IMG/VR virus record: IMGVR_UViG_2563366883_000018 | From: a virus | Taxonomy: Duplodnaviria; Heunggongvirae; Uroviricota; Caudoviricetes | Direction: 5' to 3' (one strand) | DNA length: 18,760 nucleotides | In this document: positions 3,308 to 14,651 of the stretch, piece after piece | How positions within the stretch are numbered: position 1 is the first letter of the stretch | Layout of the letters: each line of letters starts with the position of its first letter | The notes under the pieces: model-generated | What the model was told of the DNA's origin: nothing | Databases searched by the model: none | The model's input: only the letters and a program-made list of their open reading frames with translations | Program-made: the position numbers and the translations under genes

Positions 3308-3883
3308 CTACGGCAGTGCTGGCCATTCAATATCCTGTGCAGTTGACGTATCAACACGGTTCAGCAATACCCGATACTTTTTCCATGCTTCCAGCAACGA
3401 GATTTCTTCCTCCGTTGCAATTTCCAGATCTGCAGCATCCTGAAGCGGCGCAATATGCTCACTGGCTACCTGCATCAGGTTGTTTTTTGTTTCTTCCGCC
3501 TCCCGGATCCGGAACAGTTTTTCTGCTTCCGTATCCTTCACCCAGGCTGTGCCGTTCCACTTCTGAAACTCCCCTTCCGGGGATAACCAGGTGACATTTT
3601 CCGGTAATGGGCCAAGTTCAGAAATAAATAACGCGTCGCCGGAAGCCACGTCATAGACGGTTTTACCCCGATGATCTTCAACGAGATGCCACGATGCCTC
3701 ATCACTGTTGAAAACAGCCACGAAGCCAGCCGGAATATCTGGCGGTGCAATATAGGAACTGTTTGCTGGCAGACCTGTATGAGGCGGAATATATGCGTCA
3801 CCTTCACCAATAAATTCATTAGTTCCTGCCAGCAGATTATAAATTTTTATGGTCCGTGGTTGTTCACTCATTCTGAATGCCAT
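3308..3883 (-). CDS. tfaQ: Tail fibre assembly protein (Tfa family), 191 aa
   Basis: ORF track 3308..3883(-); ATG at 3883-3881 overlaps the stf stop by 1 nt (TAATG), indicating translational coupling; lambda Tfa-like sequence. Confidence 0.9.
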
Positions 3884-6798
3884 TATGCAAGCCTCACAAT
3901 GTAGTTAAATGCGATGTTTTTGACAGTGTTTTCCGCGTTACCAGCAGCGTTAACGGTGATGGTGTGTCCATGTGAGCCAATCGCAACAGAGTGCGTATGA
4001 GCACCAATACCGACAGTATGTGCGTGAGCACCTGCAGATGCAGCTGTGCCGCTGACACTATGAGTGTGCGCTCCTGCAGCACTTGTATTCACACTGGCCG
4101 CAGACACTACCTTATGTACTGACCCATTTTGTGACCACTGGCTGACTGCTGATGCGCCTGTGACACTATGAGTATGGTTTCCGGCACTTGCGGCTGTACC
4201 GCTCACACTGTGCGTATGCGCCCCGGTGTTATTCGTGGATTTAGTGCCGTAATCAAACGACGATGTGGTTTTCGTCCCCAAATCCGTACTGGATGCACTG
4301 GCGCTGTGGGTGTGCGATTTAATGCCGTCCTGTTCCTGAGATAATACGGCCCGACCACTGGCAGGTTTGCCCTTAATCGTCCAGCCACGCATATCAGGGA
4401 TCACGCCTGACGGATAAGCGGTTGCAAGTTTCGGGTAAGCGGATTTGTCAAAAGTCTGCCCCTGCATCAGGGCATAACCAGACGGAACGGTATCTGATGG
4501 CCACGGGATTGGTGCGCCAGGCGGATAAAACTGCTCTGATGGCGTATAGAGTGAATAAACTGTACCGTCCGTTAACCCTTCCGGCTTATTAGCAGAATAT
4601 GCTGGTGACGTATGAATAGTCACGCTGGCATTACTGGTATAATCCCATTGAATATTTACACCAGTCGCATAATTTCCGATTGCAACGTAAATATCGTAAG
4701 TATCACCAGATGTATTGACCCAGGCAAAATTTGTAAACCCTGTCGATGTGCGCTGCCATAAAGCACCAGTAATCCCCTTCGGATTACCATTACCTGCACG
4801 CAAAACAAGTTCAGATATACCTGCCTGTTGAGGTGACCCCACGTTAAATCCCGCGCCACCAATCAACGTAATTGAAACAACAGAACTCGCCTGTGGCATG
4901 GTTACCGTTGCTAATTTGAACCAACCAGCACCACCGCTGAAGGACATTGTTGTTGAGTTAAGCGTACCAATATCTTTCGGCGTCAGTGTTATATCCGCTG
5001 AAAGCGCCTTACCATTCACCTTACGGGCAGAAGGTACCCGACCATTCGCATTATCATTAGCTGCTTTCACTGCTTTCGGTGTCGCGGCAAGCGTTTCAGA
5101 TGCGCTGTTGGTTGCACTACTGAGCTGGACAATTCCTTTTTGTGCTGTCGTAGCGTCCTGAGCAGTATATTTCCCGTTAGCAAGGTCATAGGCTGCCTTT
5201 ACCGACTTTGGCGTTGCCGCCAGCATTTCAGATGTGCTGTTGGTCGCGCTGCTGAGCTGAACTATCCCTTTCTGTGCTGTCGTTGCATCCTGTGCGGTGT
5301 ATTTCCCGTTAGCCAGCTCATACGCGGCCTTAACGGCTTTTGGCGTTGCCGCCAGTGACTCGGAAGTGCTGTTAGTCGCACTGCTGAGCTGTACTATCCC
5401 CTTTTTCGTCGTGCTCGCATCCTCAAGCGCCACGGCGGATGCAATATCCTCTGCCCGTTTTGCCGCTGTCTCGGCGCGCGTTGCCGCGGATTCCGCCGTA
5501 CTTTTGCTCTGAGCTGCCGCCGTCGCACTGCCAGCTGCCTCTGTCGCCTTCGTGGATGCCGTCGTGGCGCTGCCCTTTGCTGCTGACGCCTGTCTGGTCG
5601 CCTCATCTTTTGAAGCAGACGCAGATGATGCCGATGACGCCGCCGAACTGGCGGACGATGCGGCAGCCGTTTTTGAGGATTCTGCGCTGGTTTCCGACGC
5701 TTTCGCGTTCGTCTCGGATGTCTTCGCTGCGGAAGCAGACCTCGCTGCTGCGCTGGCCTGTTCAGTGGCTTCGCCAGCCTTCGTTGTGGCTGTTGAAGCG
5801 GACGATGCGGCGCTTTCTGCCGATTTTCCGGCAGCGGTGGCACTGGCTGAGGCCTGCCCGGCACTTGTTGACGCGGCACTGGCAGACGACGCAGCCGCTG
5901 TTTTTGAGCCTGCCGCAGCTGAGGCGCTCTGTCCCGCTGCCGTCTCAGAAGACCTGGCGTTCGTCTCGGACGTTTTTGCCGCCTTCGCGGAATTTGCTGC
6001 CGCCGTTGCCGAGGAAGCTGCGCTACTGGCGCTCGAGGATGCGTTCGTTTCTGATGATTTTGCCGCCTCTTTTGAAGCCGACGCATCCCGGGCTGAGGTG
6101 GCAGCTTCTGACGCTTTCGTAGTCGCGGTGGATGCAGAAGTGGCGGCTGATTGTTGTGACGCTGCAGCATTCGTTTCTGACGTTTTCGCGGCAGCGGCAC
6201 TGGTAGCTGCCGCGCTTTTTGAGGACTCTGCAGCGGCAGCACTTTTTTCCGCTTCAGTGGCCTTTGTTGATGCCGTTCCTGCGCTGGAAGACGCTGACTG
6301 AGCCGACGAAGCGGCCTGTCCGGCTGACGTGCTGGCTGCACGTGCTGAATCTGCAGCATCAGTCGCATGGGTTGCCGCCTCACGGGCAGATGTGCCGGCA
6401 TCACTGGCTGACTTCTTCGCGGCTGCCGTGTTCTGTGCCACCACGGACGCGTTACGCGCCACCTCTTCCACCATCTGTTCAAAACGGCGCAGTGCCTCCG
6501 GACGGGCATCATCCTCCGTCATGGCACCGAGAAAATCATTCAGCGTACCGGGTTGAGAATCTTCATACACGGTGATGGTCCCGGCATGTGACGGCGGGAA
6601 TCCTTCCACCAACAGAATAACGCTGTACTGCCCGTACTCAACGTCCATGCTGTAACGCCCGGCTTCATCCGGATTTTCTGAGGCCAGCGTGTTCACCACC
6701 ACCGTGGTGCTGTTACGTTTTGCTTTCAGCTGGATTGTGCAGTTCTGTACCGGTTTTCCTGTGCCATCTTTCAGTACACCTGAAATCTTTACTGCCAT
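3883..6798 (-). CDS. stfQ: Side tail fibre protein, full length (about 971 aa from ATG at 6798): lambda-Stf-like N-terminus, long Ala/Ser/Thr-rich central region, three tandem fibre repeats, His-rich HTHS C-terminal domain
   Basis: ORF track 3883..6804(-) begins with GTG; the ATG two codons in gives [26 protein letters not shown] (lambda Stf N-terminus as recalled) and is preceded by GGGGTGA; C-terminus ...[39 protein letters not shown] matches the lambda Stf C-terminus. Confidence 0.9.
5040..5410. repeat. Three tandem copies of a repeat of about 129 bp inside stfQ, encoding ...[44 protein letters not shown] (third copy degenerate)
   Basis: Visible in the protein (three near-identical 43-aa units) and in DNA (e.g. 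5091-5210 versus 5221-5340); boundaries approximate. Confidence 0.8.
5420..6470. repeat. GC-rich low-complexity region of stfQ encoding the Ala/Ser/Thr-rich segment; source of several spurious long alternative-frame ORFs
   Basis: Protein shows reiterated [18 protein letters not shown] motifs; DNA is dominated by GCNGC triplets; boundaries approximate. Confidence 0.7.
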
Positions 6799-6814
6799 AT
6801 TCACCCCACAAAAA

Positions 6815-10981: not shown

Positions 10982-11252
10982 GATGTTACCGTAGTATGTG
11001 AGTATCCATCGAATAGACACCAAGCAAAAAAGCTCCCGAAGGAGCCTTCATTTTCACTTTTTTAAATCCAACGACAGACGGCTGGCATTTAAGTATTGTG
11101 AAATATTATCAAATGTAATCATCATTGATTTACAAAAGATACATTTTGCCCCGAAAGGATTCATGTCAGAAACATCAAAAGATGATGTTCTATACTGGGA
11201 ACCATGACAACACGGGCATCTAAAGTGAATATGGTTTGTAATATTGTCTACC

Positions 11253-11465
11253 TCAAAGCGCCACTACATGAACAGCGGCAGGACCTTTAGGTCCGTTCTC
11301 AATACCAAATTCAACTTCCTGATTCTCAGTTAATGTTTTGAAATCGTTGCTCTGAATTGCTGAGAAATGGACAAACACATCTTTGCTGCCATCTTTCGGC
11401 GTGATGAAACCAAAACCTTTTTCAGGGTTAAACCATTTCACTAAACCAGTCATTTTGTTAGACAT
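11253..11465 (-). CDS. cspI: CspA-family cold-shock protein, 70 aa
   Basis: ORF track 11253..11465(-); [13 protein letters not shown]...KGFGFI...FVHFSA cold-shock domain with RNP1/RNP2 motifs; followed on the minus strand by a long AT-rich leader (11466 to about 11650). Confidence 0.93.
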
Positions 11466-11826
11466 AATTATTACCTTTTGAAGAAATTAGCCCTTGGGCA
11501 GAATGGTCCGAAAAAAATATCAGAGAGAAAAACCAACAAGGAAATCTCAAGAGGTACAAATAATAAAATTATAACAATGACTGCTTCAGATAAATTTGTA
11601 ACAAACCAGAACACCATTAACGCATGATTAACCACCCATAGCAAGGATTACTTTTGTAAAGAAAAACACAGCAATGAAAGAATAGCTTTATTTATTAATA
11701 AAACGTGTCATTCTGATTAAGACCTTTTATCTTACCCTTAAGATTTCAGGAATTTTGGCTCATGGAAGAGTCCTTTTTATTCAAATTTTACATTCCGCGA
11801 TGTAAATGTTCCGATTTAATATTACC

Positions 11827-13166: not shown

Positions 13167-13382
13167 TTACTCTCCTCTCGCAGCCTTACGCCTGTCTTCT
13201 TTAATCTTGAAATAAAGATTTGTCAGATACGTCAGCAGGCCAAAAACCAGGCTACCCAGCACACCGATTGCAGCCCACTGTGACGGAGTTACTTTATCGA
13301 GTAACTGCAATGCCCAGAAACCAGCATTACCCGCCGATGTGCCATAGGCAACACCTGTTGTTAACTTATCCATTGATTTCAT
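13167..13382 (-). CDS. essQ: Class II holin, phage-21 S-type pinholin, 71 aa, with dual-start motif MKSM
   Basis: ORF track 13167..13457(-); the internal ATG at 13382 gives [71 protein letters not shown], near-identical in pattern to recalled S21. Confidence 0.9.
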
Positions 13383-13601
13383 ATCCTCACCCCGATGTAC
13401 ACGGATGGTGCAATATGTTTGAAAAGATCGGAGTCTACGGGGTAGTTTTGACAGCACACGTTGTTCTCAACGGCGCTAAAAAAACATACACATTAAAAAT
13501 ATGGGTAATTATTTTGAAAGAAAGTCATATATAAAATAATAATACGAGAAATGTTTTCATATTTAGTGTACTGTATACGGCCATTTATACAGGAAAAGCC
13601 T

Positions 13602-13772
13602 ATGTCAGAACGTAAAAACTCAAAATCACGCCGTAATTATCTCGTTAAATGTTCCTGCCCAAACTGCACCCAAGAGTCAGAACACAGTTTTTCAAGAGTA
13701 CAAAAAGGTGCCCTTTTGATCTGCCCTCATTGCAACAAAGTATTCCAGACAAATCTTAAAGCTGTAGCCTGA
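13602..13772 (+). CDS. Small zinc-ribbon protein, 56 aa (CPNC ... CPHC)
   Basis: ORF track 13551..13772(+); the internal ATG at 13602 is preceded by AGGAAAAG; two CxxC pairs; diverges from the late operon. Confidence 0.55.
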   Translation: MSERKNSKSRRNYLVKCSCPNCTQESEHSFSRVQKGALLICPHCNKVFQTNLKAVA

Positions 13773-13825: not shown

Positions 13826-13853
13826 GATAATAAAAAACCCGCCTGAGCGGGTT
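13826..13853 (-). terminator. Rho-independent terminator hairpin (stem AACCCGC/GCGGGTT, loop CTGA) with a strong T-run on the minus strand; weaker on the plus strand
   Basis: Minus strand reads AACCCGCTCAGGCGGGTTTTTTATT; about 280 nt downstream of the cspB stop and 60 nt downstream of the zinc-ribbon ORF. Confidence 0.55.
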
Positions 13854-14135
13854 TGAGATTGTGGTGCTTTTTGTGGGAGTCATCCACTTACGCACTTTGT
13901 TTTGCCATGCCAGCAGTTAGCTTCTGCTGTAAAACTATTCAGGCAGCAAACCTGCACTTCACCACAATGGTTAGCATACTTTTCCTGATTAAGATTTTGC
14001 CAAATATGCTAGCCATTGTTTCATGTATTGGACCTCCTTACTTTTTATTAAAGAGATCCAATATTCACTACTCTGTCCGTATCTCTACTCAGGCATCAGC
14101 CTTCTTCGTTATCGTATACAGACGAGCGATGAATT

Positions 14136-14351
14136 TTAATCAGTAATGATGACATTTGCTGCTGCAGGACCTTTAGCACCACTCTCTATAGAGAAGGTAA
14201 CCTTTTGACCTTCAAATAAGGTTCGATAATTATCATTCTGAATCGCAGAAAAATGCACAAACACATCTTTACTACCATCAACAGGAGAAATAAAGCCGAA
14301 ACCTTTATCAGCGTTAAACCATTTTACTAAACCAGTCATTTTATTTGACAT
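14136..14351 (-). CDS. cspB: CspA-family cold-shock protein, 71 aa
   Basis: ORF track 14136..14351(-); [21 protein letters not shown]... cold-shock domain. Confidence 0.93.
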
Positions 14352-14651
14352 TCTACATTCCTTAACTTGAGCCTTTCGGCATAAATGGTTTGCATAACAG
14401 AAACGACTTCGTACTTAATTGGAGAGACTCAAAGAAGGAATAAGTGAATAACACCTGAAATGAGAACTGCTTTAGTAAACTACTTCGTATATCGTCTGTT
14501 CTTCAAACCGACGCAATCATTAACGCATAGTTGAACATATGAAGCAATGTTTATTTTAGACATCCAGCCATCTTCAACCCCATCAAAAAACTATAGCTTT
14601 CTTCAGGAACGTGTGTATAGTGCGCCAAGTTATCAGTATTAAGGAATTTTT

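Follow-up and report, generated by a model that had tools for sequence, protein, structure and literature searches.

The small zinc-ribbon protein gene ynfU of a Qin-type prophage and its association with csp genes across enterobacteria

A short open reading frame (ORF) that runs against the direction of a phage late operon raises the question of whether it is a gene and, if so, whether its function belongs to the phage. The ORF considered here lies at positions 13602 to 13772 of an 18,760-nucleotide (nt) stretch of viral DNA (Caudoviricetes; IMG/VR record IMGVR_UViG_2563366883_000018), the whole of which is referred to as the window. An initial annotation, made from the sequence alone, had described it as the gene of a small zinc-ribbon protein, divergent from the holin gene. 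We find that this ORF is almost certainly ynfU (b4776), a genuine, translated and conserved gene of a Qin-type lambdoid prophage. The comparative analysis adds a modest new lead, namely the association of ynfU with csp genes across enterobacteria, usually tail-to-tail with a cspA-type gene.

Identity, reading frame and selection

The window protein is 100% identical to YnfU of E. coli K-12 (WP_211180497.1), and the ynfU region of K-12 shares 99.7% DNA identity with the window, with 2 mismatches over 601 bp. In K-12 MG1655, essQ (PGAP name essD) and cspB of the Qin prophage flank ynfU. A 601-bp query around the ORF is matched in 1,653 of 5,426 complete E. coli genomes, 1,281 of the 1,655 records being at least 99% identical, and the feature found under these matches is annotated "ynfU: putative zinc-binding protein YnfU". 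Furthermore, the protein matches Pfam PF23499 (YnfU) with 107.3 bits against a cut-off of 27 (E=3.5e-31, positions 1-49 of 49) and NCBIfam NF038384 ("YnfU family zinc-binding protein") with 79.4 bits against a cut-off of 36 (E=1.1e-22, positions 1-51 of 52). Its place in the YnfU family is thus supported by both hidden Markov models (HMMs), by size and motif (56 amino acids (aa), four Cys, SEHSF) and by the K-12 type member with its locus.

The gene was found by Weaver, Mohammad, Buskirk and Storz in 2019 (bioRxiv 10.1101/511675, later mBio) through ribosome profiling of initiation complexes stalled by Onc112 or retapamulin. A chromosomal sequential peptide affinity (SPA) tag confirmed YnfU, whose level was the highest among the newly found small proteins (bioRxiv 10.1101/511675), and the protein was seen at 37 °C in LB, in exponential as well as in stationary phase (bioRxiv 10.1101/511675). 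YnfU is among the more abundant of the recently discovered E. coli small proteins. PIRT-Seq independently detected ynfU in 2025 (PMC12350097). The initial annotation had suggested looking for a translation signal, which the published initiation profiling and SPA tag provide, and comparing the ORF with catalogued E. coli small proteins, which leads to ynfU. On the other hand, its treatment of the ORF as a poorly characterised prophage protein gene has to be amended, since the gene is already described: a 2019 publication covers ynfU, its translation and its zinc-knuckle motif, and RefSeq, Pfam and NCBIfam contain the gene. In later papers YnfU is mentioned only as a putative small metal-binding protein or in lists of E. 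coli genes that are literature-dark, and a silver-nanoparticle paper (PMC13306010) reports only a low-frequency intergenic ynfU/cspB polymorphism, without functional test.

Selection on the reading frame was assessed on a comparative set of 80 loci, one per species-level genome, together with four phage loci. Among the homologues, the mean proportion of non-synonymous differences (pN) is 0.17 and that of synonymous differences (pS) 0.75. The median ratio of non-synonymous to synonymous substitution rates (dN/dS) is 0.11, as calculated over codons 1-49 of 70 distinct nucleotide sequences, for the 1,019 pairs with unsaturated dS. The gene is under strong purifying selection, and the ORF is far more than a chance one. 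The synonymous versus non-synonymous pattern in relatives, also proposed as a check in the initial annotation, therefore favours a real gene.

Two features define the reading frame:

13602..13772, plus strand: ynfU coding sequence (CDS), 56-aa product MSERKNSKSRRNYLVKCSCPNCTQESEHSFSRVQKGALLICPHCNKVFQTNLKAVA; supported by the ORF list, K-12 identity, family HMMs and dN/dS
13591-13594, plus strand: Shine-Dalgarno sequence AGGA, 7 nt upstream of the ynfU ATG; read from the sequence

The ORF starts with ATG at 13602 and ends with TGA at 13770-13772, giving 56 codons plus the stop. Reading of the sequence and the ORF list agree with the initial annotation on the 56-aa length, the good Shine-Dalgarno sequence and the CPNC and CPHC pairs, and the ORF coordinates place the gene, as had been stated, on the strand opposite to the late operon, between essQ and the cspB region. 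The program-made ORF list contains a longer mechanical ORF of 73 aa that begins at ATG 13551. In 28 diverse homologous loci, CAGGA and the ynfU ATG are invariant or nearly so, and the sequence farther upstream diverges. The 56-aa start is preferred because of this invariant CAGGA-N7-ATG, the RefSeq annotation and the published initiation-site profiling. We give next to no credence to the alternative that the true product is the 73-aa form, or that the frame occurs by chance and the RNA is the functional element. The longer form has in its favour the mechanical ORF itself and the N-terminally extended versions present in some database entries. However, the 17 extra upstream codons vary in sequence and length in contrast to the invariant CAGGA-N7-ATG, a predicted -10 box (13538-13543) would put the transcript start at or after 13551, and 13602 is the start in RefSeq as well as the site of the published initiation peak. 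The non-coding reading is excluded by the dN/dS of 0.11.

As a separate observation, several E. coli genomes (strains cS76a, F3_13_1_3, EH01-18-04-A, FDAARGOS_1370, FDAARGOS_1371 and FDAARGOS_1291) have the 601-bp ynfU region interrupted by an IS1 or IS200C insertion, one record having ynfU annotated in two pieces.

Linkage to csp genes and the prophage setting

A csp gene lies at most 1.2 kb from ynfU in 58 of the 80 species loci. With about nine csp genes per 4.6-Mb genome by our own estimate, adjacency by chance would be near 0.5%. The commonest arrangement, found in about 26 loci, is the layout of the window, with ynfU on the plus strand, a cspB-like gene on the minus strand and a cspF-like gene on the plus strand; in ten loci the convergent cspB-like gene is alone, in eight there is just a co-directional cspF-like gene, and several variants carry an upstream csp gene. 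Furthermore, the cspA thermoregulator (RF01766) scores above the gathering threshold on an adjacent csp gene in all 18 csp-linked loci tested, which range from Citrobacter to Kosakonia and phage PHB10, and it is also present in the window, so that ynfU is linked to a csp module. The neighbouring features of the window are as follows:

13167-13382, minus strand: essQ holin gene, divergent from ynfU across a 219-bp spacer; ORF list and annotation, given for context
14136-14351, minus strand: cspB CDS, convergent with ynfU
14120..14512, minus strand: cspB mRNA with a cspA-type thermoregulator leader; Rfam RF01766, 158.8 bits
14652..14864, plus strand: cspF, beyond cspB, third member of the recurrent ynfU / cspB-like / cspF-like order; ORF list and annotation

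When the window proteins EssQ, YdfR, RrrQ, CspB and CspF were compared with all loci by tblastn, csp genes were found in most of them and lysis genes in a handful, a neighbour of the EssQ or RrrQ type being confined to Escherichia and a small number of other loci. The genes outside the ynfU-csp pair vary, with LysR, short-chain dehydrogenases, malic enzyme, transporters and, occasionally, phage lysozyme, Q or SRAP. Since these outer flanks differ, the pair travels together. Judged from these sequence comparisons, ynfU appears to be basically a chromosomal enterobacterial small gene travelling with a cold-inducible csp gene, and the ynfU of Qin would be a csp-linked cassette placed in the Q-S moron site. 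With its own Shine-Dalgarno sequence and a direction of transcription that leads away from the lysis genes, it behaves there as a moron that the lysogen expresses. The "prophage late region" of the initial annotation is thus incidental, because the neighbour conserved over 80 species is not a holin gene but a csp gene, and the flanks are mostly chromosomal. It is this csp-cassette association that makes the function of YnfU testable; the finding of the gene, being already known, matters little.

The setting in Qin nevertheless calls for a role in the service of the prophage to be weighed. YnfU could be a moron acting in superinfection exclusion or anti-phage defence, or could modulate late-gene or lysis expression, being antisense to the late transcript. 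The gene lies between the antiterminator gene Q and the holin gene in E. coli Qin-like prophages, and it has the same position in the active phages HannyBb, PhiR42_1, 2H10 and Tritos and in Klebsiella phage ST13-OXA48phi12.4. The Q-S interval is a classic moron site. However, a tblastn search of 50,697 phage records found a YnfU homologue encoded in only 8, most of the 80 species have chromosomal flanks with no lysis gene near, and in phage PHB10 ynfU, together with the csp pair, adjoins the integrase gene, away from the lysis genes. In addition, a search of PHROGs gave no matching family, and the PADLOC defence models gave no match at E<=0.1. The gene does not belong to a lambdoid late or lysis cassette, as judged from its location on the opposite strand, the presence of holin or endolysin homologues in a minority of the 80 loci and the lack of a PHROG. 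We therefore consider a prophage role unlikely, and we infer that YnfU has no lysis or late-gene function.

One of these phage records deserves a remark on its annotation. In Escherichia phage HannyBb (locus L002), tblastn identifies an intact cspB (100%) at 4538-4750 on the minus strand and cspF (98%) at 5051-5260 on the plus strand; the deposited annotation there consists of many 30-aa "hypothetical proteins", and this part of the record is apparently mis-annotated.

Transcription signals and cold-related surroundings

Three candidate or predicted signals flank the ynfU reading frame:

13514..13543, plus strand: candidate sigma-70 promoter TTGAAA-18 nt-AATAAT; consensus scan 10/12, predicted
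13566-13574, plus strand: conserved leader or promoter motif, consensus CGTGTATGGT, here GTGTACTGT; nearly invariant in 28 homologous upstream regions
13835-13854, no strand assigned: G+C-rich hairpin AAACCCGC-CTGA-GCGGGTTT, with an 8-bp stem and a 4-nt loop, 63 nt after the ynfU stop

The A-rich AATAA box of the candidate promoter is partly conserved in the upstream alignment. The CGTGTATGGT motif precedes the ynfU Shine-Dalgarno sequence by about 30 nt in genera with otherwise unrelated flanks, and may be an unusual -10 region, a leader element or an operator element. A study that predates the ynfU annotation, using genomic systematic evolution of ligands by exponential enrichment (SELEX), placed peaks for the RpoH and RpoE holoenzymes in the "essQ/cspB" spacer (PMC5493296). 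These peaks could reflect a ynfU promoter, a weak hint on which we do not rely, the region being AT-rich and the coordinate mapping approximate. An RNA thermometer in the leader was considered and rejected: a 7-bp hairpin (CTGTATA...TATACAG) abuts the Shine-Dalgarno sequence, but the folding of 13550-13640 is no better than that of shuffled sequences (z = -0.07), and the 7-bp stem is not kept in other genera.

Downstream of the gene, the hairpin mentioned in the initial annotation does exist, 63 nt past the stop, but it scores as a terminator in the cspB direction only, where a T-tract follows on the minus strand. On the ynfU strand, an A-run precedes it and only UUUGAGAUU follows. It is probably a shared, bidirectional terminator that acts mainly in the cspB direction. 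A similar hairpin with an A-run and CCCGC occurs in the Citrobacter, Raoultella, Klebsiella, Superficieibacter and UBA5654 loci. The gap between ynfU and cspB is also spanned by a 97-aa ORF with a TTG start (13853-14146, plus strand), which overlaps the 3' end of cspB and parts of which are labelled "hypothetical protein" in the records of phages PhiR42_1 and HannyBb. This ORF is probably spurious, and the approximately 280 nt from the cspB stop to the terminator at 13835-13854 would therefore be a long 3' untranslated region of cspB.

Beyond the immediate neighbours of ynfU, the prophage of the window shows an unusual concentration of cold-related genes (cspI, cspB, ydfK, ynfR, ynfQ, gnsB and cspF). 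A second RF01766 thermoregulator mRNA is found on cspI (11226-11610, minus strand), besides that of cspB. The 62-aa YmcF-like gene (about 11054-11242, minus strand) lies directly downstream of cspI (11253-11465, minus strand); its product matches PF23641 (E=1.7e-32), carries CPCC...CIFC and corresponds to the K-12 RefSeq entry "ynfQ: cold-shock protein". Its 62 aa require an ATT start (11242-11240), the first ATG giving 36 aa only. The neighbouring small protein YnfR is reported to be cold-induced, with nothing direct on YnfU (PMC6001520). Further temperature- or stress-related RNA elements occur around members of the ynfU family: the small RNA STnc100 of Rfam lies just upstream of ynfU in Superficieibacter (locus L034, 3740-3869, minus strand) and in phage PHB10 (locus L004, 2820-3021, minus strand), and a FourU thermometer is located near ynfU in an Enterobacter locus (L061, 2717-2781, minus strand).

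Fold, possible role and comparison with known systems

The residues most strictly kept among the 84 homologues belong to three short segments:

13656-13667, plus strand: zinc knuckle 1, CPNC, residues 19-22; C19 and C22 invariant
13677..13691, plus strand: SEHSF motif, residues 26-30; SEHS[F/Y] invariant, the best-conserved non-cysteine stretch
13722-13733, plus strand: zinc knuckle 2, CPHC, residues 41-44; C41 and C44 invariant

YnfU has a mass of 6.4 kDa and an isoelectric point (pI) of 9.6, all 84 homologues having pI values of 9.4-10.0, and its Arg/Lys-rich N-terminal tail (residues 1-13) is predicted to be disordered. C19, C22, C41 and C44 are the predicted ligands of a single C4 zinc ribbon, whose two knuckles enclose an invariant SEHSF-R-x-Q-K-G surface; C17 is not a ligand, since Ser or Asn replaces it in three of the 84 homologues. 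The AlphaFold2 model was built from a 36-sequence alignment that includes distant members (an earlier run with 26 sequences gave a predicted local distance difference test score (pLDDT) of 58 and was not used). Its mean pLDDT is 75.7, with 82-87 in the core (residues 11-50) and both tails disordered, and its strands E14-18, E25-29, E38-40 and E47-49 flank the two CPxC turns. The core is thus modelled with confidence as a C4 zinc ribbon fold, which, together with the YnfU family HMMs, lends support to the zinc-ribbon assignment of the initial annotation.

Exhaustively searched with the HMM, 1.84 billion representative proteins yielded only 41 clusters at E<=1e-3; once evident mis-called extensions and repeat proteins are set aside, these are stand-alone proteins of 50-60 aa. 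PF23499 is still matched by all 26 aligned family members, and even the farthest members retain S26, H28 and S29 as well as the patterns CPxC, S-x-H-S, R/K-V/I-x-K and L-I/L-C-P-x-C. The family is tiny, stand-alone, very basic and mostly enterobacterial, and YnfU belongs to this small family only. Indeed, the search for characterised relatives in Pfam, NCBIfam, PHROGs, PADLOC, PDB profiles (with two alignments), the 1.84 billion representatives and, with Foldseek, PDB and BFVD returned only generic, sub-threshold zinc-ribbon matches. The best Foldseek matches in PDB (E ~0.1, template modelling (TM) score ~0.45) are small zinc-finger proteins of archaeal ribosomes, Tim15, HVO_2753 and ZitP, and the BFVD search yields generic viral zinc ribbons.

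That YnfU mainly handles metal, by zinc storage, buffering or delivery and without a macromolecular partner, would be in keeping with the four invariant Cys ligands and with the literature, which speaks only of "putative zinc-binding" or "metal-binding". This nevertheless seems very unlikely, because one structural zinc site in 56 aa makes a poor buffer, the conserved non-ligand residues and the basic tail are left unexplained, and neither a Zur-type context nor metal-homeostasis neighbours were seen at the loci examined. The invariant surface leads us to infer instead that YnfU binds a macromolecule.

As to its nature, charge, fold neighbours and csp linkage lead us to propose, tentatively, that YnfU may bind RNA or the ribosome within a csp-linked stress module. 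The zinc ribbon and the basic tail would contact RNA or the ribosome, and YnfU would act in the same stress or cold-adaptation module as the linked cspA-type RNA chaperone gene. It is conceivable, if rather doubtful, that ynfU / cspB-like / cspF-like forms a mobile cold-shock cassette exchanged between Enterobacteriaceae chromosomes and lambdoid prophages, and that YnfU is its unrecognised partner, which would bind RNA or the ribosome and work with, or modulate, the adjacent cspA-type RNA chaperone. The comparative result as a whole, with its conserved tail-to-tail csp linkage in many genera, mostly non-phage flanks and uniformly basic ribbon bearing an invariant SEHSF, suggests cold shock and csp genes, and not phage lysis, as the place to look for the function.

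Several points weigh against this proposal. No nearby csp gene is present in 22 of the 80 loci; these csp-less loci, together with two distant members, lie in ordinary chromosomal neighbourhoods that include HSP20 (3), IraP (2), Usp (1) and, in two csp-less loci, a YmcF-like gene. The 80 species loci are not independent of one another, and the csp linkage may reflect a co-inherited cassette and not a shared function. YnfU is abundant at 37 °C in LB and thus is not strictly cold-dependent, and its basic charge is equally compatible with binding to DNA or to an acidic protein. All likeness to characterised zinc ribbons is below significance and typical of the fold. Furthermore, we found no functional experiment on YnfU in the published literature, no measurement of its zinc binding there, and no low-temperature expression data for ynfU.

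The closest known systems on the side of RNA and the ribosome are eL42/L44e (E ~0.008) and the small zinc-finger proteins of archaeal 70S/30S ribosomes and HVO_2753 (Foldseek probability 0.66-0.95), which are the best, although non-significant, neighbours of YnfU in sequence and fold. Both eL42/L44e and the archaeal HVO_2753-like proteins seen on 30S/70S ribosomes are similar to YnfU in size and in their basic charge, and share with it the two-knuckle ribbon as well as a CPxC-x3-EHS-like stretch. They differ from it in being archaeal or eukaryotic, and the matches are non-significant (HMM E ~0.008-0.03, Foldseek E ~0.1-1, TM ~0.45). YnfU is not a member of eL42/L44e, as the first knuckle alone aligns (17-22 residues, E 0.008-0.06) and the L44e model of NCBIfam gives E 0.73.

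A comparison with the DNL zinc finger (Tim15/Zim17/Hep1, PF05180), an Hsp70 escort, brings in another explanation, in which YnfU, as a small regulator, attaches to a larger protein, in the way of most E. coli small proteins that have been characterised. The target could be a chaperone, as Hsp70 is for Tim15/Hep1, or RNA polymerase, as for the zinc finger Ogr of phage P2, or a Csp protein itself. The local pattern match extends over both knuckles (C-x2-C...S-x-H...KG..LI.CPHC), Tim15 (2e2z) being a top-3 match both by sequence (E 0.009-0.012) and by fold (probability 0.90). The invariant SEHSF..R.QKG surface suggests one specific interface, and Weaver et al. expect a protein partner for most small proteins (bioRxiv 10.1101/511675). 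However, the DNL family is mitochondrial and plastid, and YnfU reaches only 13.5 bits with zf-DNL against a cut-off of 27 and therefore falls outside that family. After CPHC it reads NKVFQTNLKAVA, without the DNL-containing helix, so that the DNL motif and the C-terminal half are absent. Moreover, a Pfam search gave no Ogr_Delta match at E<=1, and csp is the only consistently co-occurring gene. A protein partner is thus possible for YnfU, with considerable doubt.

The best Pfam match other than YnfU itself is the N-terminal zinc ribbon of PhnA/YjdM (PF08274; 22.4 bits, E=1.3e-4), which is weakly matched by 15 of the 26 family members. Weaver et al. had reported a match of YnfU to PhnA/YjdM through the PA0128 structure 2akl (bioRxiv 10.1101/511675), to which our PDB profile match gives E ~0.5-1.5. 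YnfU does not belong to PhnA/YjdM, its score remaining under the cut-off of 30.8 and the PhnA C-terminal domain being absent.

At the level of the prophage, the Qin-like element of the window is less decayed than Qin of K-12, since an ORF of 973 aa at the tail-fibre position is intact in the window and truncated in K-12. This ORF is located at 3883-6804 on the minus strand and has as its K-12 counterpart a truncated "phage tail protein" pseudogene. Nearby, at 3342-3540 on the minus strand, a full-length match to Rfam IS009 (RF02111, 220.9 bits) is found within the tfaQ/pinQ region.

The last comparison, with the YmcF/YnfQ family (PF23641), returns to the csp genes. BLASTP gives no alignment between YnfU and YmcF/YnfQ at E<=100 (no profile-profile comparison was made), and their homology was not retained. 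Like YnfU, these proteins stand alone, measure about 60 aa and carry CxxC...CxxC, and their genes adjoin a cold-inducible csp gene. While YnfU is convergent with its csp gene, YmcF/YnfQ is co-directional with, and downstream of, its own, and its pI is 8.7 as against 9.6 for YnfU. If ynfU is indeed part of a mobile cold-shock cassette, the unrelated, zinc-ribbon-like YmcF/YnfQ proteins encoded beside cspG and cspI would be a second example of such a pairing.

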